A program made the position numbers and the translations under genes. Shown here one piece after another: positions 1,333 through 61,835 of a DNA stretch of 64,000 nucleotides (positions within the stretch are counted from its first letter, which is position 1; the number at the start of each line of letters is the position of its first letter). Below the pieces are notes generated by a model that saw nothing but the letters and a program-made list of their open reading frames with translations, ran no database searches and was not told where the DNA came from. This DNA comes from Nitrosopumilus sp. (GTDB lineage Archaea; Thermoproteota; Nitrososphaeria; Nitrososphaerales; Nitrosopumilaceae), in NCBI GenBank assembly GCA_965214775.1, contig OZ243974.1, positions 2,400,001 to 2,464,000 of the forward strand, in the 5' to 3' direction.

Positions 1333-1550
1333 TTAATATCATTAAAACATAATTATATATAACGATTTATGATTTAATGATACTGATATAATAATACAAA
1401 ATAAACAGATGTGTTTGCTTTATCCACTTGAAAGCATTGGGCTGCCCTTCCTCACTTCCTCCTTTCCTACCACCATGTCTCCATATATGGCTGTTCTATC
1501 CCTCATCTCACGTCCAAACATTAGTCTGATGCGACCCACCGTAACCATAT

Positions 1551-2678
1551 GTGTCTCAAAAACAAAATTCAGATGGTGCCAAGATAAATGGCAATGCAAA
1601 CAAACAGATTACCGCAAAAAAGAGGATACATGTGAAATCAAAGACTGTACAAATACAACAACAACAGCAGTATGTCGGCCTGGACGTGCACAAGAATTTC
1701 ATCCAGGTCGCGGTGATGGACAAGGGCGGCAAGATGCTGAGTAACACAAGAGTCGACAACAATGACGACGAGATAAGAAAGATATTTTCAGGGATTCCAA
1801 AGAATGCAAAGTGCGTCATGGAGTCCTCTTCAGTATGGTACGGGCTGTTCAGGTTCATTTCAGACAGTCTCAAAAGGGACGTGATCCTCTCAAACCCGTT
1901 TGAGACCAAGGCCATTGCCACATCAAAGAAAAAGACAGACAAGGTCGACGCGCAGATTCTGGCAGATCTTCTCAGGGGAGGATACATATCTGCATGTTAC
2001 GTTCCCTCCGGCAAGACGGTACAGAACAGGCAGCTGACCAGGCACCGCGCAAAGACGATACAGTCAAGGACCGTACTAAAGAACCAGATACACGCAATAC
2101 TGCTGCAAAACAGGATACAGGTAAATGGGGATCCGTTCTCCAGACCGTGGATCTCAAGGGTGAGAGATCTGGACAACTTTAGGATAAATGACAAATTAAG
2201 CATAATTGACTCTATAAACGACAGAATAGTAGGCATTGACATGCGCATCAAGAGCGCAGTTGCCGACAATCCGGATGCAGTATTACTGCAGACGATTCCC
2301 GGGTTTGGCAGCTACACTGCACTGACCATGGCATCAGAGATAGACGGCGTTGACAGGTTTGCCGACTCACACAAGCTGTGCGCGTATGCCGGAATGGTGC
2401 CGTCTGTGAGAAACTCTGCAGACACCATCCACCATGGAAGGATAACAAAGAGGGGCAGCCCCATGATGAGGTGGCTCCTAGTGGAGTCAGTACACAGCCA
2501 CGTAAGACATGCGCCGTCAGACTCGCCGATATCTGTCTTTTACAAGAGGGTTGCAAAGAAGAGGGGAACGTCCAAGGCCGCAGTGGCTGCCGCATCCAAG
2601 ATGCTGCGCATATCATACTGGATGCTAAAGAAGAGGATGACCTTCAAGCAGTGCATAGGAGATGCGTGTGTGAAATGA
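1551..2678 (+). CDS. IS110 family transposase/recombinase
   Basis: VGLDVHK, MESS, KTDKVDA (DEDD RuvC-like); IPGFG, AYAGMVPSVRNS, GRITKRG motifs. Confidence 0.95.
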   Translation: MSQKQNSDGAKINGNANKQITAKKRIHVKSKTVQIQQQQQYVGLDVHKNFIQVAVMDKGGKMLSNTRVDNNDDEIRKIFSGIPKNAKCVMESSSVWYGLFRFISDSLKRDVILSNPFETKAIATSKKKTDKVDAQILADLLRGGYISACYVPSGKTVQNRQLTRHRAKTIQSRTVLKNQIHAILLQNRIQVNGDPFSRPWISRVRDLDNFRINDKLSIIDSINDRIVGIDMRIKSAVADNPDAVLLQTIPGFGSYTALTMASEIDGVDRFADSHKLCAYAGMVPSVRNSADTIHHGRITKRGSPMMRWLLVESVHSHVRHAPSDSPISVFYKRVAKKRGTSKAAVAAASKMLRISYWMLKKRMTFKQCIGDACVK

Positions 2679-2699
2679 ATGTTGGTATTACCATTACAG

Positions 2700-2913
2700 T
2701 TAGAACTTTAATCTGCGTTAACCTAGTTGAGGGCGATCCTCGTTTTGTAACTGCAGAATGGTTCTGACAAATGGATGAAGAATGGTGCTGAGGGAGATCC
2801 TCGTATAGATAAGTGTCCGACCTTCATTTTGGAATTGTCAGGAAAGACCCCCAGCCAAAGCCATGCCTCACAACACCGTTGCGCGTGGAATCCTTATAAA
2901 CGTGACACATAGA
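2700..2913 (+). ncRNA. Putative bridge/seek RNA of IS110 copy 1 (also present in copies 2 and 3)
   Basis: Two loops capped by GAGGG(C/A)GATCCTC hairpins; stems TCTGC/GCAGA, CTGACAA/TTGTCAG, ATGAAG/CTTCAT; loop arms match IS ends and flanks. Transcript boundaries unknown. Confidence 0.7.
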
Positions 2914-3082
2914 TAACTGCAGAATGGTTCTGACAAATGGATGAAGAATGGTGCTGAGGGAGATCCTCGTATAGATAAGTGTCCGACCTTCATTTTGGAA
3001 TTGTCAGGAAAGACCCCCAGCCAAAGCCATGCCTCACAACACCGTTGCGCGTGGAATCCTTATAAACGTGACACATAGATAA
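2748..3082. repeat. 166-bp direct tandem duplication of the IS110 3' end
   Basis: 2748-2913 is repeated at 2914-3079. Confidence 0.95.
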
Positions 3083-3195
3083 TAGGTTAGCCCTTGCCTA
3101 GGCAGCAATCAGGCATGAATCTGCCTCTAGTTACGATTTTCATGCCTGAACAGACGGGGGTGTGACTTTAACTCTAGGCAGGGGCTAACCTGTTA
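3080..3195. repeat. Palindromic MITE-like element between the inverted IS110 copies
   Basis: TIR AGGTTAGCCC(T/C)TGCCTAG at both ends; inner TCAGGCATGAA/TTCATGCCTGA. Confidence 0.75.
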
Positions 3196-4570
3196 TCTAT
3201 GTGTCATGTTTATAAGGATTCCACGCGCAACGGTGTTGTGAGGCATGGCTTTGGCTGGGGGTCTTTCCTGACAATTCCAAAATGAAGGTCGGACATTTAT
3301 CTATACGAGGATCTCCCTCAGCACCATTCTTCATCCATTTATCAGAACCATTCTGCAGTTACAAAACGAGGATCGCCCTCAACTAGGTTAACGCAGATTA
3401 AAGTTCTAACTGTAATGGTAATACCAACATTCATTTCACACACGCATCTCCTATGCACTGCTTGAAGGTCATCCTCTTCTTTAGCATCCAGTATGATATG
3501 CGCAGCATCTTGGATGCGGCAGCCACTGCGGCCTTGGACATTCCCCTCTTCTTTGCAACCCTCTTGTAAAAGACAGATATCGGCGAGTCTGACGGCGCAT
3601 GTCTTACGTGGCTGTGTACTGACTCCACCAGGAGCCACCTCATCATGGGGCTGCCCCTCTTTGTTATCCTTCCATGGTGAATGGTGTCTGCAGAGTTTCT
3701 CACAGACGGCACCATTCCGGCATACGCGCACAGCTTGTGTGAGTCGGCAAACCTGTCAACGCCGTCTATCTCTGATGCCATGGTCAGTGCAGTGTAGCTG
3801 CCAAACCCGGGAATCGTCTGCAGTAAGACTGCATCCGGACTGTCGGCAACCGCGCTCTTGATGCGCATGTCAATGCCTACTATCCTGTCGTTTATGGAGT
3901 CAATTATGCTTAATTTGTCATTTATCCTAAAGTTGTCCAGATCTCTCACCCTTGAGATCCACGGTCTGGAGAACGGATCCCCATTTACCTGTATCCTGTT
4001 TTGCAGCAGTATTGCGTGTATCTGGTTCTTTAGTACGGTCCTTGACTGTATCGTCTTTGCGCGGTGCCTGGTCAGCTGCCTGTTCTGTACAGTCTTGCCG
4101 GAGGGAACGTAGCATGCAGATATGTATCCTCCCCTGAGAAGATCTGCCAGAATCTGCGCGTCGACCTTGTCTGTCTTTTTCTTTGATGTGGCAATGACCT
4201 TGGTCTCAAACGGGTTTGAGAGGATCACGTCCCTTTTGAGACTGTCTGAAATGAACCTGAACAGCCCGTACCATACTGAAGAGGACTCCATGACGCACTT
4301 TGCATTCTTTGGAATCCCTGCAAATATCTTTCTTATCTCGTCGTCATTGTTGTCGACTCTTGTGTTGCTCAGCACCTTGCCGCCCTTGTCCATCACCGCG
4401 ACCTGGATGAAATTCTTGTGCACGTCCAGGCCGACATACTGCTGCTGTTGTTGTTGTATTTGTACAGTCTTTGATTTCACATGTATCCTCTTTTTTGCGG
4501 TAATCTGTTTGTTTGCATTGCCATTTATCTTGGCACCATCTGAATTTTGTTTTTGAGACACATATGGTTA
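3194..4570 (-). mobile_element. IS110 family (IS1111-like) element, copy 2
   Basis: Near-identical to copy 1, inverted; single 3' non-coding region. Confidence 0.9.
3431..4561 (-). CDS. IS110 family transposase/recombinase
   Basis: Differs from 1551..2678 by a few substitutions and one extra Gln. Confidence 0.95.
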   Translation of the reverse strand: MSQKQNSDGAKINGNANKQITAKKRIHVKSKTVQIQQQQQQYVGLDVHKNFIQVAVMDKGGKVLSNTRVDNNDDEIRKIFAGIPKNAKCVMESSSVWYGLFRFISDSLKRDVILSNPFETKVIATSKKKTDKVDAQILADLLRGGYISACYVPSGKTVQNRQLTRHRAKTIQSRTVLKNQIHAILLQNRIQVNGDPFSRPWISRVRDLDNFRINDKLSIIDSINDRIVGIDMRIKSAVADSPDAVLLQTIPGFGSYTALTMASEIDGVDRFADSHKLCAYAGMVPSVRNSADTIHHGRITKRGSPMMRWLLVESVHSHVRHAPSDSPISVFYKRVAKKRGMSKAAVAAASKMLRISYWMLKKRMTFKQCIGDACVK

Positions 4571-4609
4571 CAGTCCGTTTACACATCATCAAAATCTGCC
4601 AATCTCGAA

Positions 4610-6385
4610 TCAACCTTCTGCGGGGCTAACCTGCACCCACGCGCCGTCCCGGATCTGCCACACTGCATAGTCCGTACGCAGCCTGTCTCCTGCATCGTTA
4701 AACTCGATGTTGCTTCCGCTTGCACCATCGTACTCTTGCGCCACCGAGACGATCCCGTCTGCCACGTCCGGCGCAAAGCCGGTCTGGCCGTCAAGTACTG
4801 CCTCTCCTATCAGTCGCATGGCATCATACGCAAAGAACGCATACACGCTTGGCTGCCTGCCGAGGACCTCGACGAGCCGCGCCTCCACGTCTTCTGTCAC
4901 GTCGCCGTACGGAACGGTGGGCTGGACGGATGTAAACTCCACGGCCTCTGCAAACCGCAGTGCCTCCGCACTGCCTGCCGGTACCGTGTTGGCATCGGCG
5001 CCAAACCATCTGACGCCTGCCAGCACATCATGCTTTGTGGCCTCCTCTAAAAAGTCATAGGTCTCCTCAAAGCCTATAAACAGGACTGCGACCTTGTCTG
5101 CGCCATGGATGCCGACCTGTCCGGACACTGTCTCTGAGAGCATCCAAATGTGTTGATCAAACTGGCCTGATGCGTCATACAGCACAGGCTCTGAGAACAT
5201 AACTGTTCCTTCTCCATTCTCCTCCTCTACGTCTGCCATGTGTCTCTCATCGGACTCGGGTGATGTATCTGCCTCGACAAACGCCATACCTGTGTTGTCA
5301 ATGAGATCAGTAACCCATATGCCGTCCCTTCCTGCGGGAACCACGACCTTTATTCCCTCGATTGCCATCAGCCGGGCAAGCGCCTCGCCGTGGCCGCGGT
5401 GATCAGATATCATGCGCATCAGCGAGTCTCCCGCTGTGGCATAGTCTGTCACGACAGAGCAGCAACTAAAAAGCAGCATGCCGTTCTCATCGGCATAGTC
5501 TATGACATCTCTCTCAAAGATGTCAATTGAGGGGCCAACGACCAGCCGGACTCCCTGCTCCCTTAGCTCTGCCACGCCCTCCAGCTCCCTGCTGCCGTCT
5601 GTACCTGTATCGTAAACTATGACCTCAAGATACCACGGATGGCCGCCTGCCTCCAGCTTTGCGTTAAAGTCGTCGGCTGCCGTTTTTGCTGCATCTGTTA
5701 TGTCCTGGCCGTATCCTGCGGCGCCTCCGCTGATGGGTGCAAGCAGTCCCACTGTAACTGTGTGCATCTCCCAGTTCTGTATGGTCTCATAGGCTGCCAG
5801 ATCATAGCCTATCTCAGAGAGCGTTTCGTACGTGGAGGGCTTTAGACACGTGGGCATTGCAGAGTCCCTCAGAAACGGCTCCCTCGGCGCGTTGCACTGT
5901 ATGGCAGAAAGGAAGACGCCGTCCCTGTACTGCGTTGCCGGCGGGTCGTGTCGTACAGCATACGTGCCGCTGCCAAAGACGTACCCGTCATGCAGGACCA
6001 GCAGCGTGTGCTTGACCTCGTCGCGGCCGGTGGCCGGATTCAGGAACACATAGTATATCCTGGTCTCCCCGTCTGCATCAAGCTCCGCGTTTATCTGCTC
6101 TAGCGTCTTGTCCGGACGTATGCTGTCCAGCGCATTCGTACCAACAAGGGACGGATTGGTCCCGTGTGCCAGCACCAGGCCGTCCCTGCCAAGCACAAAC
6201 GGATAGTGCTCCCTGTCACTTTGCATTGTTATGGCCTCAAGTCCGGACTCTTTGTACGTCTCTATGGCAGAGATGATCTGGGCCCGCGCCGGATCCTGGT
6301 AGGCGTCTTCTGCATATGCAATGCCGCCTGCAGCAGGCATCAATGCCGCAAGTACTGCCAGCGCAACTATCACAGTCTTTTCCAA
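4610..6385 (-). CDS. Secreted Cache-like domain plus branched-chain amino acid ABC-type substrate-binding protein
   Basis: Signal peptide; 'HYPFVLG..GLVLAHG...YYVFLNPATG..EVK...YVFGSG' Cache-like; 'VGLLAPISG..AGYG', 'YAFFAYDA', 'FNDAGDR' PBP type 1. Confidence 0.8.
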   Translation of the reverse strand: MEKTVIVALAVLAALMPAAGGIAYAEDAYQDPARAQIISAIETYKESGLEAITMQSDREHYPFVLGRDGLVLAHGTNPSLVGTNALDSIRPDKTLEQINAELDADGETRIYYVFLNPATGRDEVKHTLLVLHDGYVFGSGTYAVRHDPPATQYRDGVFLSAIQCNAPREPFLRDSAMPTCLKPSTYETLSEIGYDLAAYETIQNWEMHTVTVGLLAPISGGAAGYGQDITDAAKTAADDFNAKLEAGGHPWYLEVIVYDTGTDGSRELEGVAELREQGVRLVVGPSIDIFERDVIDYADENGMLLFSCCSVVTDYATAGDSLMRMISDHRGHGEALARLMAIEGIKVVVPAGRDGIWVTDLIDNTGMAFVEADTSPESDERHMADVEEENGEGTVMFSEPVLYDASGQFDQHIWMLSETVSGQVGIHGADKVAVLFIGFEETYDFLEEATKHDVLAGVRWFGADANTVPAGSAEALRFAEAVEFTSVQPTVPYGDVTEDVEARLVEVLGRQPSVYAFFAYDAMRLIGEAVLDGQTGFAPDVADGIVSVAQEYDGASGSNIEFNDAGDRLRTDYAVWQIRDGAWVQVSPAEG

Positions 6386-6590: not shown

Positions 6591-6682
6591 GTATGTGGTC
6601 ACGTCCCCTTGCGAGCTAGGCATGAAAATCATAGACATGCATGCCAACTCGTGCCTGATTGGCAGGGTAGGTGACCTCGTAC
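6591..6682. mobile_element. IS66-type MITE with 8-bp TSD
   Basis: Ends GTATGTGGTCAC...GTGACCTCGTAC flanked by GTCTTAAT on both sides; sister copy at 61743-61835. Confidence 0.85.
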
Positions 6683-9360: not shown

Positions 9361-9408
9361 TATACACTGTTGTATGTACAAAGTTGTATATAACAATACT
9401 GCATATCA

Positions 9409-9557
9409 TAGTTTGTTGTATGACTTCCTTTTTCGTCAAAAAACTCCTGGTTTCGATCACAGATAGATCCGAAATCAACTGTGATTTTTATCTGGACTTA
9501 TAATTTAGGACGAATTCAAGTAAAAAAATCGAGTTATGCAACAAACTAGATGTTGTA
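9409..9557. repeat. MITE with IS5-type inner TIR (TAGTTTGTTGCATAAC) and IS66-like outer tip; sister copy 50639-50798
   Basis: Aligns over ~140 bp with 50649-50790; inner TIR equals that of the IS at 13894-15133. Confidence 0.85.
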
Positions 9558-10136
9558 TCTATGTGTCGTGCTTATAAGGATTCCACGCGTAACGGTGTTG
9601 TGAAGTATGGCTTTGGCTGGGGGTCTCTTCCTGACAATCACAAAATGAAGGTCGGACACTTATCTATACGAGGATCTCCCTCAGTACCATTCTTCATCCA
9701 TTTGTCAGAACCGTTCTGCAGTTACTAAACGAGGATCTCCCTCAACTACATCAACGCAGATTAAAGTTCTAACTGTAATGACAATAATAATAATGATGAT
9801 GACGTTCATTTCACACGCATGTCCACTATGCACTGACTGAAGGCCATCTATTTCTTTAGCATACGAGGACTCCATGACGCACCTGGTGTTATCCGGAATC
9901 TTTGCAAACATCTCTCTTATCTCGCTGTTCCTGTTGCTTATTTTTGTATTCCCCAGGACCTTGCCGTCCTTGTCCATCACCGCGACCTGGATGGACTCCT
10001 TGTGCACGTCCAGGCCGACATACTGCTGCTCCGCCTTTGATTTCACACATATCCTTTTTTTTGCGCTAATCTGTCTGTTTGCATTGCCTTTTATCTTGGT
10101 ACCATCTGAATTTTGTTTTTGAGACACATATGGTTA
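9556..10136 (-). mobile_element. Internally deleted IS110 copy 3 (non-autonomous) retaining both ends and the ncRNA
   Basis: Same ends as copies 1 and 2; transposase jumps from 'MESS' to the last codons; diverged in sequence. Confidence 0.9.
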
Positions 10137-10154: not shown

Positions 10155-10261
10155 GTAACAGCTCGGGCTCTGGAAGTTCAGGTGTGAGTTTTGCCACCTC
10201 GGAGGCCCATGACATATTCGTGCCTGAAATCAGGAACAGCTTCCAGAGCCCGAGCTGTTAC
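10155..10261. repeat. GTAAC-ended MITE; relatives ~7061-7173 and 50961-51078
   Basis: Perfect 22-bp TIR GTAACAGCTCGGGCTCTGGAAG. Confidence 0.8.
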
Positions 10262-17928: not shown

Positions 17929-18127
17929 CTGAGAGTTGATTCGAAATTAGCAGACTCTGATTATTTGTGAACGAATTTGCATAAAGCAGCTCAAAAGTAC
18001 AACTTCAGATCCTTTTTATACTGACTAGGGAACTTTTTGCCCGGAACTTTTTGATCCTTCCGCATCTGCTGTGACAGACCCGCTACATCACACCACACGT
18101 CCCTTGTATATGCAAGACCGGCAGCGC

Positions 18128-18169
18128 GCAGACAACAGATTATTGGCAGACAACAGATTATTGGCAGAC
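18128..18169. repeat. 18-bp tandem repeat in the IS66 3' non-coding region
   Basis: GCAGACAACAGATTATTG x2 plus GCAGAC. Confidence 0.85.
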
Positions 18170-18292
18170 GGCACCTGCAGGAAACCAGCATTGTCAGATT
18201 TGCCTGGCGTTGTTGACTGGCAGACTTGCCTGCACAGTCGGATTCTTTGACATGAAGCTACGGGTTACGCCGTCCCGTAGACGCCAGACGGA

Positions 18293-19894
18293 TCATGTTG
18301 TTGTAGGAGCTGCTGCTGCTGGTACGACGGCCGTCCGGTTCCGGCGTACCGCTCCTCTGCTGCTGCCTGCGTCATCATCGACTACAGGCCGCCACACCGG
18401 CGGCGGCCCGGGACACTCAAAGACGCTGTATCTTGTACCGTCCGTATTGACAAGCAAGGACAGCAGGCGCGCATCATTATCATCATCTCTTGCATCTGCA
18501 AAGATATCCCAGACCGGATTCCGCAGGTATTTCAAGAGTCCGCCGGCAGGATGTATATTCTGCTTGCGACATGTCATCGAGAACGTCAGCAGCGCAGAAG
18601 CCGTCTTTCTTCCCCCGTCAGTTACGATCTTGTGGCGTGCATTGCGTTGTGGTATGATCCCGTCGCGTATGCACCGCTCCGTATCGTTGTTGTGCAGCGG
18701 CATTCCCCGATGCGCCAGACACGTAAACATGTTGGGCATGGCGTTTAGCAGGTGTGTACGCACGTGAACGTCCTCATACGGGTTGATTATTTTGTATACT
18801 TCCCTGGAAAGATCCATGTATGTAAGCGGCGCAAGCGTCTTGATTTTATCTATCTTCCTGTAGAATTCCAGCAGCAAGTCATACCTTTTCTCATCATCGC
18901 CTTCGGGCATCTTTACTGCAAGCTTTTCTGCATACGCCAGAAGGTGCCTCCAACACCTCTGGATTATATCAAAGAACAGCTTGTACTGGGCCAGTTCGTC
19001 TACGACTATGGGAGTCTTGGGATCCAGCCATCCAAAGTGCGTGTGCAGTACCTCGGAGGACCGGGAATCTGCAAAGACCACAAAGCACGCCCCCTCGCAG
19101 TTGAGCACCCAGACGTACCCCGTGTGCCCGTCGCCGCGCTTAAAGCCGGTCTCGTCCATCTGTATCCACGGCCTGCCCGCAATGAATGACTGTATGCGTT
19201 GTATCATGTTTTGTTGAATCGCCTCTGCCACTGTGTGCCGGGCGGCAGTCACGGTATTTGGGGCCATCCTGAATCCAAACATATACTGAAAGTACTCTGC
19301 AATGTCCTCGTCTGTGTTTCCCTTCTCAAAGAACATCATGATTAGAGAGAGTGAGACGGGCCCAAGTGACGTGCCGCTTAGAAACGGGGTGGCCGCTACA
19401 TGCACGGTATTGCACTGTGGACACACCGCGTTTTGGATGATGGCATTGGCAGTGAGCATGCGCATAAAACCGTCCAGGTCGTTGACAAGCTTGTGGATCG
19501 GCTTGAGCATCCGTAACTGGATGTTGCACCTTGGGCATATTTTGGAGCCAAGATCGTACCTTAATGTCATGGATGGCCGGTTGCCGTGCGATGTACCATG
19601 GTGTCCGCACGGAGGGCCGCGTTTCTTGCCCCGAGCAGCATCGCCTGGACTGCCGCCGGGATCCTCGCCCCTTTTCTCCCTGAACTTTCTTCTGGCATCA
19701 TTGTGTAATGACGGCGTGGACGTGGGCATGTTGGGACTCTCGTACAGGGCAAGCCTTGCCCGGAGCTCGGAGTTCTCCTCTTTGATGTCGGAGTTCTCCT
19801 TTTCCAGCTCGGAGATCTTCTCATCCCGCTCCTTGATCATGACAAGTGCCTTTGCAAGATCCATATGGTGTGCAGGCGTAGATTTGGAGTCCAT
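18293..19894 (-). CDS. IS66-family transposase
   Basis: Coiled coil, CxxC pairs, MDETG, YVW, QRCWRHL, HNN..ER motifs. Confidence 0.9.
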   Translation of the reverse strand: MDSKSTPAHHMDLAKALVMIKERDEKISELEKENSDIKEENSELRARLALYESPNMPTSTPSLHNDARRKFREKRGEDPGGSPGDAARGKKRGPPCGHHGTSHGNRPSMTLRYDLGSKICPRCNIQLRMLKPIHKLVNDLDGFMRMLTANAIIQNAVCPQCNTVHVAATPFLSGTSLGPVSLSLIMMFFEKGNTDEDIAEYFQYMFGFRMAPNTVTAARHTVAEAIQQNMIQRIQSFIAGRPWIQMDETGFKRGDGHTGYVWVLNCEGACFVVFADSRSSEVLHTHFGWLDPKTPIVVDELAQYKLFFDIIQRCWRHLLAYAEKLAVKMPEGDDEKRYDLLLEFYRKIDKIKTLAPLTYMDLSREVYKIINPYEDVHVRTHLLNAMPNMFTCLAHRGMPLHNNDTERCIRDGIIPQRNARHKIVTDGGRKTASALLTFSMTCRKQNIHPAGGLLKYLRNPVWDIFADARDDDNDARLLSLLVNTDGTRYSVFECPGPPPVWRPVVDDDAGSSRGAVRRNRTAVVPAAAAPTTT

Positions 19895-20113
19895 GTGTTA
19901 CATCAAACAGGCATGATCAAAAAAGATTTCCATCGAAATTCTTTGACTAGGATGCCGATAATGGATCACCCCAGCAAATTCCAATCCTGCAATGACTGGT
20001 CACAAATGTCTGATGTTCAGCCATGTTCGCAGGGGCATCTGATCATAAGATGCTGCCCAAAAATGTTTGACTGTCAGTATAAAAAGGACCTGAAGTTGTA
20101 CCTTAAGTCCATA

Positions 20114-50638: not shown

Positions 50639-50798
50639 GTACAACATCTAGTTTGTTGCATAACTTCCTTTTTCATCAAAAAACTCCTGATTTCGATCAC
50701 AAATAGAGTCGAAATCAACCGTGGTTTTTATCTGGATTTATCATTTAGGACGAATTCAAGTAAAAAAATCGAGTTATGCAACAAACTAGATGCTGTAC
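50639..50798. repeat. Composite MITE: GTACA(A/G)CATC tips around IS5-type TIRs
   Basis: TIR GTACA(A/G)CATCTAGTTTGTTGCATAACT. Confidence 0.85.
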
Positions 50799-61742: not shown

Positions 61743-61835
61743 GTATGTGGTCACGTCCCCCTACCATCTAGGCACGAAAATTACAATCATGCACGCTAAT
61801 CCGTGCCTAGCTGATGGGGGTAGGTGACCTCGTAC
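61743..61835. mobile_element. IS66-type MITE with 8-bp TSD
   Basis: GTATGTGGTCAC...GTGACCTCGTAC flanked by GATTTTGA twice. Confidence 0.85.

Follow-up and report, generated by a model that had tools for sequence, protein, structure and literature searches.

Insertion of an IS1111-type element at the tips of IS66-type repeats in a Nitrosopumilus genome: a predicted guide RNA and a transposase-less derivative with a different guide

A 64,000-nucleotide stretch of the genome of Nitrosopumilus sp. (contig OZ243974.1, positions 2,400,001 to 2,464,000; hereafter 'the window') contains two copies of an insertion sequence (IS) of the IS110 family, one at either end of a single miniature inverted-repeat transposable element (MITE). 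This raises the question of what directs the IS to the outermost bases of another mobile element. Our analysis makes it quite probable that the IS, an IS1111-type element, inserts in an RNA-guided manner at the tips of IS66-type elements, and that the guide differs in a transposase-less derivative, where it matches the target of that derivative. The elements concerned are the following.

1542-3081, plus strand: F1, full-length IS (copy 1 of the window), TAACCATATGTGTC... to ...GACACATAGATA, including a tandem duplication of the right end
1551-2678, plus strand: transposase open reading frame (ORF) of F1, IS110-family DEDD transposase, 375 residues
3080-3195, no strand assigned: MITE-A, 116 bp, IS66-type, repeats TAATAGGTTAGCCC.../...GGGCTAACCTGTTA, occupied at both tips
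3194-4570, minus strand: F2, full-length IS (copy 2 of the window), 1377 bp, with ORF 3431-4561 and target-loop core 3353-3396
9556-10136, minus strand: D6, 581 bp non-autonomous derivative
9400-9557, no strand assigned: MITE occupied by D6, occupied tip ...CAAACTAGATGTTG-TA, other end degenerate

Insertion sites of the IS and its derivatives

F1 and F2 are 98.5% identical and lie in opposite orientation. Both terminal G/C bases of MITE-A are cut off from it by the IS copies. Rejoined across TA, the outer flanks read G-TA-ATAGGTTAGCCC and G-TA-ACAGGTTAGCCC, so that both tips were hit at the same base. This had been claimed in an earlier, sequence-only reading of the window, by which removal of copies 1 and 2 at TA restores an element hit at the equivalent base of both terminal inverted repeats; coordinates and junctions proved exact. 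The same reading had noted that the restored MITE lacks a target-site duplication (TSD), and the outer 8-mers, GACCCACC and AGTCCGTT, indeed agree at only 2/8 positions. As the right end of the IS faces the repeat interior and the MITE was hit at both tips, the result is an inverted structure of about 3 kb. Removal of what had been taken for a third copy restores a tip (GGG-TA-CAACATCTAG) that matches the one of a sister MITE, as proposed, but this copy is the 581 bp derivative D6 and not a third copy of the IS.

With copy 2 as query, we searched the whole 2.83 Mb single-contig Nitrosopumilus genome. The IS is present in five intact full-length copies (F1–F5) and one interrupted copy (F6). There are nine internally deleted derivatives (D1–D9), 581–610 bp long or 748 bp where the right end is duplicated, and some shorter fragments. 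What D6 retains is about 290 bp from the left end, in which 94 codons of the transposase survive, and 309 bp from the right end, in which both RNA modules described below are present. In the common parts, the derivative is 81–86% identical to F1 and F2; its first 48 and last 12 bases and its donor-loop guide segments are identical to those of the full IS. Four derivatives are 100% identical to each other and two more at least 99.66% identical, the D copies being 99.7–100% alike overall. By sequence, we class the derivative as non-autonomous and of a different subfamily from the full IS.

The transposase contains the Pfam domains PF01548 (DEDD_Tnp_IS110, E = 3.6e-24) and PF02371 (Transposase_20, E = 6.5e-22), that is, the N-terminal DEDD/RuvC-like and the C-terminal domain of the IS110 family. 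The copy 2 protein scores 235.9 bits against NCBIfam NF033542 ('IS110 family RNA-guided transposase', cut-off 140). The only solved relatives among the PDB matches are the transposases of ISCro4, with an alignment spanning residues 37–366, and of IS621, where similarity is low (E = 8e-9) and covers the C-terminal domain only. In F2, the stop codon (3431) is followed by 237 nt of non-coding DNA up to the right end (3194), compared with only 9 nt from the left end to the first possible start codon. The left end reads TAACCA-TATGTGTC and the reverse complement of the right end TATC-TATGTGTC. The subterminal inverted repeat TATGTGTC is perfect over 8 bp (9/10 if extended), and the terminal extensions are short and asymmetric, with 6 and 4 bases when TA is counted on both sides. 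A 3' non-coding region and subterminal repeats are given as IS1111 hallmarks in the available text of PMC11187229, where the repeats are 11–13 bp long; the repeat found here is shorter. Because of its long non-coding region 3' of the gene and its subterminal repeats, the element is assigned to the IS1111-type members of the IS110 family, with an archaeal host. Among the models of the SSU clan, it is the archaeal one that fits the rRNA gene of this host best. The transposases of F1 and F2 (375 and 376 residues) differ by one Gln codon in a poly-Gln stretch near the N-terminus (QQQQQ at window 1650-1670, QQQQQQ at 4440-4460).

All 15 tabulated elements begin with TAACCAT(A/G)TGTG... and are immediately preceded by a G, the left flank being otherwise variable. 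The right end reads ...ACAT(A/G)GATA in all of them except F6 (...GATC). The right flanks are non-random and fall into tip families. In the intact full copies (5/5) the flank is A(T/C)AGG(T/A)TAGCCCCTG..., and all five lie at the G|TA tip of the 116 bp MITE family; since they adjoin the same 15–20 nt tip at the same base, chance is excluded. The right flank of D1–D8 is CAAC(A/T)T..., and all of these derivatives (8/8) adjoin a tip that reads GTACAAC... and belongs to an IS66 element or to one of its MITEs, the tip family GTACAACATCA being the repeat of the 2.1 kb IS66 element described below and of related MITEs. D1, D2, D3 and D7 are located at the same end of IS66 copies, as is D8 after a nested IS with the TSD TACAACAT has been discounted, while D4, D5 and D6 are located at MITE tips. 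Three solo mini right-end units of 166–183 bp (genome 69298-69480, 114824-114990 and 2249425-2249601) start at an internal G-TA and contain the donor loop without the target loop; each of them (3/3) follows G-TA at a GTAA(C)AGCTC(G/A)GG MITE tip. The earlier claim that the IS hits the extreme tip of IS66-type repeats is borne out by this genome-wide tabulation of insertion sites, in which most copies do not lie outside GTA-tipped repeats. Directly left of one solo unit, a 17 bp unit, GTGAACCTGTTGTATTT, is repeated in tandem (genome 114770-114823).

Insertion is orientation-specific, with the right end of the IS towards the repeat interior. It swaps only the terminal G for A and leaves the remaining repeat contiguous. 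Immobilization of the IS66-type ends, which the earlier reading had proposed, is no more than a possibility here. As the derivative junctions have only TA in common with the uninterrupted target, TA is the probable crossover core. That the right flank is itself a part of the IS was ruled out by the occurrence of MITE-A in both orientations relative to the adjoining IS and by its free copies.

The target elements belong to several families, and the window contains further members.

17997-20101, minus strand: IS66-family element, 2.1 kb, unoccupied, tips GTACAACTTCAG..., single 533-residue ORF at 18293-19894
50639-50798, no strand assigned: unoccupied sister MITE of that at 9400-9557, tips GTACAACATCTAG / GTACAGCATCTAG, without TSD
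6591-6682, no strand assigned: GTA-tipped 92 bp MITE with perfect 8 bp TSD GTCTTAAT
61743-61835, no strand assigned: GTA-tipped 93 bp MITE of the same family, with perfect 8 bp TSD GATTTTGA
10155-10261, no strand assigned: 107 bp MITE, tips GTAACAGCTCGGGCTCTGGAAG, a tip family hit elsewhere in the genome by the mini right-end units

GTA tips are thus common to the IS66 repeats and to the two MITEs with 8 bp TSDs, as had been stated from the window alone. The 2.1 kb element matches PF03050 (DDE_Tnp_IS66) with 63 bits (cut-off 23.1; genome 2418635-2419303), one of 52 such matches in the genome. Its score against NCBIfam NF033517, 108.5 bits, is below the 180-bit cut-off, for which reason we regard it as a divergent IS66 member. 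There are 11 full-length copies with the tips GTACAAC...GTTGTAC, and six of them have perfect 8 bp TSDs. The element thus has a DDE_Tnp_IS66 transposase, an 8 bp target duplication and repeats starting with GTA(A). GTA(A)-tipped repeats, 8 bp duplications and a single ORF are also features of ISDge4, an IS66 member of the ISBst12 group, for which the accessible part of PMC12898284 gives the repeat GTAACTGCTCAGCA, an 8 bp direct repeat and a single ORF. MITE-A is present in about 25 copies, of which 21 are full-length (~116 bp), two occupied and 19 free. The free copies end in GTAA...TTAC or a near variant; 10 of the 19 have a perfect 8 bp TSD, one matches at 7/8 and eight at ≤4/8 positions. 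MITE-A is small, has no ORF, is multi-copy and has IS66-like repeats and an 8 bp TSD, as expected of an IS66-type MITE.

Next to F2, the last 8 codons and the stop codon of a periplasmic-binding-protein gene (4610-6385, minus strand) read GTGCAGGTTAGCCCCGCAGAAGGTTGA (window 4571-4640). This sequence is similar to a tip of MITE-A joined to the beginning of another, very abundant MITE of ~140 bp (78% over 55 nt). The 3' end of the gene may be MITE-derived.

The predicted guide RNA and its match to the targets

We aligned the non-coding region of the full IS with that of the derivative and of three relatives (47–56% protein identity), which come from further genomes of this genus. RNAalifold, applied to the five sequences, revealed a conserved fold of two modules, in each of which an internal loop separates an outer stem from an inner hairpin. 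Among its 31 pairs, seven show compensatory changes. Single-sequence folds of the whole non-coding region were no more stable than those of shuffled sequences (z = -1.5 and -0.06), so that only the alignment-based modules are informative. A search of window 1400-4700 against Rfam gave nothing meaningful, the best match being a miRNA model on the MITE hairpin (23.5 bits, gathering threshold 47).

2699-2768, plus strand: target-loop module of the predicted seekRNA/bridge RNA of F1, with outer stems and inner hairpin GAGGgcgatCCTC
2719-2726, plus strand: guide of F1, 5' side of the target loop, TAACCTAG
2747-2749, plus strand: G-TA of the 3' side of the F1 target loop, GTTTTGTAAC
2773-2818, plus strand: donor-loop module of F1, stem GGATG/TGTCC
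9716-9759, minus strand: core of the D6 target loop, where the guide is changed to TGATGTAG

The second module reads the donor, since both of its loop sides match the ends of the IS. Its 5' side includes ATGGT (AUGGU), the reverse complement of the left-end ACCAT, and its 3' side includes ATAGATAA (RNA AUAGAUAA), which corresponds to the right end plus TA and the first left-end base.

The 5' side of the first module is complementary to the target. The guide of the full IS is UAACCUAG; its reverse complement, CTAGGTTA, fits the MITE tip TA-ATAGGTTA at 7/8 positions. The derivative has the guide UGAUGUAG, whose reverse complement, CTACATCA, fits TA-CAACATCA at 7/8 positions in the same register, and in D5 the guide UGAUGUUG is a perfect 8-mer match to CAACATCA. 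Comparison of the guide regions, GCGTTAACCTAGTT in the full IS and GCGTTGATGTAGTT in the derivative, reveals three differences within a stretch of 6 nt, each of which is compensated in the respective target. The reverse complement of TAACCT is AGGTTA, found in TA-AT-AGGTTA, and that of TGATGT is ACATCA, found in TA-CA-ACATCA, again in the same register. The earlier proposal that the IS tracks different subfamilies by a change of guide holds insofar as each version is complementary to its own target; the carrier of the changed guide is an element of a different subfamily, not the same IS retargeted. None of the 15 target loops in the genome has a guide for ACAGCTCGGG tips, the targets of the mini right-end units, so the parent of these units is not in the genome.

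On its 3' side, the target loop has the sequence GUUUUG-UA-AC, of which no more than G-TA-(AC) agrees with real sites. This argues for half-site recognition, in which the tip and the repeat interior are read and the DNA outside is ignored. A half-site of this kind suits a target which is a mobile element in its own right.

Each of the three relatives also shows, at this loop position, complementarity to its own right flank, over 7 nt in G021, 7 nt in G015 and 6-of-8 nt in G018. On the 3' loop side, 7 nt (G018) and 12 nt (G021) are a repeat of the respective left flank plus core. On sequence and predicted fold, the top-strand match thus lies 5' of the bottom-strand match, in addition to the matches to the own ends. 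The IS described here and its relatives follow the same top-strand-then-bottom-strand order as IS1111 seekRNAs (PMC11187229).

These data are best accommodated by RNA-guided site-specific recombination at the TA core, bases 2–3 of the terminal inverted repeat of an IS66-type element or MITE (tip 5'-G-TA-...). The 237 nt non-coding region downstream of the transposase gene would be made as a seekRNA/bridge RNA with two stem/internal-loop modules and would guide the reaction. Its donor module would pair with the ends of the IS. The 5' side of the target module would pair with 6–8 bases just inside the repeat, and the 3' side would match the tip through G-UA-AC only, so that the DNA outside the tip could be arbitrary. 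The 581 bp derivative, which keeps both ends and both RNA modules, would be directed by three guide substitutions to the tip family GTACAACATCA. Its termini and donor-loop segments are identical to those of the full IS, so it is presumably mobilized in trans by the transposase of the full-length element.

Duplicated right ends were found in this region of the element. In F1, a right-end unit of 166 bp is present in tandem (2750-2915 and 2916-3081).

2916-3081, plus strand: second 166 bp right-end unit of F1, starting directly after an internal G-TA

A tandem right-end copy (166/167 bp or 110 bp) occurs in 4/14 elements, at window 2750-3081 and at genome 634050-634160, 1167112-1167279 and 2397367-2397534. 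Each unit starts just after an internal G-TA within the DNA encoding the guide-loop segment, which suggests action of the recombinase on pseudo-sites.

Order of events and alternative explanations

The IS66-type elements were present before the IS inserted. Removal of F5 restores an 8/8 TSD, TTTTGAAG on the genome plus strand (CTTCAAAA in IS orientation), and removal of D5 restores the 8/8 TSD AGCTTGCA around an 82 bp MITE. The left-flank 8-mer of D1, GATTATTC, has an 8/8 copy at a distance of 11.7 kb, on the outer side of the far tip of the IS66 nest. In none of the three cases is the second TSD copy found between MITE and IS; it is on the other side of the IS, past its far end, so that the IS66-type element must have been in place first. 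The reversed order, in which IS66-type elements and MITEs insert beside the ends of an IS110-type element, is already contradicted by these duplications and retains hardly any probability. It could draw on the lack of TSDs after IS removal at the window MITE, F3 and D7, but free MITEs lack a TSD about as often (8/19 at ≤4/8 positions), and the D copies are mutually identical while their targets have diverged. The IS66 ends carrying D copies are only 86–95% alike compared with the near-identical D copies, which points to recent, independent insertions of D into old targets. A genome search for reciprocal TSD partners of 13 elements gave a partner at a repeat tip for D1 only; about one chance match per 11-mer is expected by our estimate, and matches away from tips are uninformative.

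It had been cautioned that, without TSDs, a later rearrangement or an alternative history is possible. The outer flanks of the window MITE do match at only 2/8 positions, but since free MITE-A copies lack a TSD at about the same rate, the window structure needs no special history. An inverted duplication of a single IS–MITE junction, or an assembly artefact, in place of two insertions would account for long palindrome arms that are 97–99% complementary and for outer flanks without TSD. We consider this very improbable, because the arms differ by 1.45%, by the 166 bp duplication and by the Gln codon, and because copy 2 is nearer to copies elsewhere in the genome (98.8–99.0%) than to copy 1 (98.5%). 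Moreover, the two MITE-A tips differ from each other (AT and AC), as they do in free copies.

Could the transposase protein, or the DNA structure of the repeats, recognize the tip alone, with the complementarity being coincidental or minor? The pairing comprises only 6–8 nt and is disturbed by mismatches beside the core, nothing matches the left-half guide, the MITE repeats could form hairpins, and a preprint, in its accessible part, describes a sequence-plus-structure requirement for an IS110 element. On the other hand, the three compensatory substitutions fall exactly at the loop position, and three distant relatives have, at this very position, a complement of their respective flanks, which are unrelated to one another. 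The derivative, which has no transposase of its own, has another target than the full IS despite common ends and a common donor loop, and the same tip is hit in the 2.1 kb IS66 element, where a hairpin is unlikely. Recognition by protein or DNA structure alone is therefore improbable. Somewhat less so, though still unlikely, is that the 581 bp derivatives are not mobilized by the resident transposase and are relics that spread through an extinct autonomous parent or by segmental duplication. Their identity of only 81–86% to the resident IS implies another lineage, and no autonomous copy with the derivative guide was seen in the genome, where all 15 target loops found were listed. The near-complete identity of six derivatives with unrelated left flanks and diverged targets, in contrast, implies recent independent insertions, and the termini and donor-loop guide segments are those of the full IS.

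Several observations do not fit RNA-guided insertion at IS66-type tips, or limit the case for it. The TSD is not restored for the window MITE (2/8), F3 (3/8) and D7 (2/8), and neither a circle junction nor an empty-site joint was found at the F3 locus (genome 1625700-1628100) in contigs of four runs (X1, X4, X5 and X8). F6, the interrupted copy, has a guide mutated to TAAACTAG and the right end GATC, and another IS is inserted at a distance of ~10 nt. D9 is located outside a tip of another repeat family, ~10 nt from it, and its guide, TGACCTAG / UGACCUAG, matches with a shift of one base beside TAGGTC. No GTA-tipped target could be assigned to F6 and D9. Beside the core, the pairing is broken by a mismatched base at +1 or +2, and the GUUUUG of the 3' loop side matches no observed left flank except for its final G. 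The register varies by 1–2 nt among the relatives, whose exact ends are not fixable without empty sites. In favour of guiding, occupancy tracks the guide match: CAACATCA tips are occupied in 6/24 cases and CAACTTCA tips in 1/47 (Fisher p = 0.005), ATAGGTTA tips in 3/5 and other MITE-A tips in 2/40 (p = 0.0065), and TACAACATCA sites without a preceding G in 0/17; as these counts are small and the tip copies related, not independent, they are consistent with guiding rather than decisive.

In run X1, a contig of 660 letters follows the left flank of F3 to the last base outside the IS (position 491 of the F3 locus) and continues with 347 letters that match nothing in this locus. It may represent an alternative arrangement at F3, the locus without restored TSD.

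A further step, which we put forward tentatively and hold to be somewhat less probable than its opposite, is RNA-programmed hyperparasitism: a mini-element with a reprogrammed guide would borrow the transposase of another subfamily to attack IS66 tips. The use of a half-site may allow it to hit every IS66 copy, whatever the flanking DNA. If this is true, the predominance among full-length IS66 copies of the guide-mismatching T variant CAACTTCA (20/22 tips) would be what an arms race at the repeat tip has left behind.

Other IS110 families and comparison with known systems

A second IS110 family with 34–37% protein identity is present in the genome (2746625-2747977, 2030267-2031627 and 2751247-2749895), starting with (G)TAACCATATCAG. 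Two of its copies lie only a few bases from, or directly at, tips of other IS families with multiple copies, one with the tip CAGTAGTTCC... (7 free copies) and one with the tip CTATACTGACG... (6 free copies). Tip-targeting may be general among the IS110-type elements of this genome. Left-end fragments of 68–72 bp, 92–97% identical to the left end of the IS described here, occur at genome 548986, 808481, 1198519, 1299349 and 1896559. The two that were checked, at 548986 and 808481, run directly into sequence of the second family and are thus chimeric left ends. A third IS110 family (29–31% identity) is found at 2021387-2022835 and 1982891-1984338. At four other loci, the two flanks of one copy follow each other without interruption, with ~9 bp overlap, so that these loci resemble empty sites in another repeat; the other copy lies inside a truncated left end of the IS described here.

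IS1111/IS110 elements are now tools for programmable recombination. A natural pair with the same ends and donor loop and different guides and targets amounts to an evolutionary retargeting experiment, in which the guide-carrying non-autonomous element seems more recently active than its autonomous partner. The natural half-site target bears on how much of the guide insertion needs. In this IS66-crowded archaeal genome, one transposon family uses the invariant terminal bases of another as a safe multi-copy landing pad.

In behaviour, the closest known elements are IS4321 and IS5075, which reportedly insert some 10 bp inside a 38 bp repeat. As far as the available descriptions go, these elements, whose targets are Tn21-family repeats, are likewise IS1111-type, have subterminal repeats, insert in one orientation and can occupy both ends of the target. 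The element described here differs in its archaeal host, its IS66-type and MITE prey, its insertion at repeat bases 1–3 and the arbitrary nature of one flank. IS621 encodes its RNA at the 5' end and has the core CT, whereas here the RNA is encoded at the 3' end and the probable core is TA. The two-loop logic with donor and target loops, and a dinucleotide core common to both, are shared with the IS621 bridge RNA as presented in the accessible parts of PMC11208160 and PMC11208158.

The similarity to ISEc11, ISPa11 and ISKpn4, judged from the available text of PMC11187229, extends to a non-coding region downstream of the gene, a top-strand segment 5' of the bottom-strand segment and a specificity that follows these segments. 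Unlike in those elements, the bottom-strand segment here consists only of G, the core and 2 nt, the RNA is a predicted one, and a transposase-less derivative carries its own variant guide. A non-coding module with IS-like ends, which occurs alone and in tandem and for which a transposase supplied in trans is proposed, is also known as ssr9 of ISPpu9; in the part of PMC12288879 that is available, ssr9 is not required for transposition and is not described as changing the target. In the small element found here, by contrast, the modules of the guide RNA are retained and the guide itself is a new one. Half-match recombination and tandem partial non-coding units at IS110 loci are reported in two preprints, as far as their accessible text goes (bioRxiv 10.64898/2026.08.31.748434; 10.64898/2026.08.14.744561). 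Recombination with half of the guide matched and partial modules in tandem beside the transposase gene resemble our observations, but the half-match is an off-target event there, while the half-site here looks like the normal target.

A keyword search of the open-access literature returned nothing on point for a guide-carrying non-autonomous IS110/IS1111 element or for IS110-family targeting of IS66 repeats. Within the reach of this search, the archaeal host, the IS66-type prey, insertion at bases 1–3 with a naturally half-matched guide and a recently amplified transposase-less element with its own retargeted guide each appear to be new.

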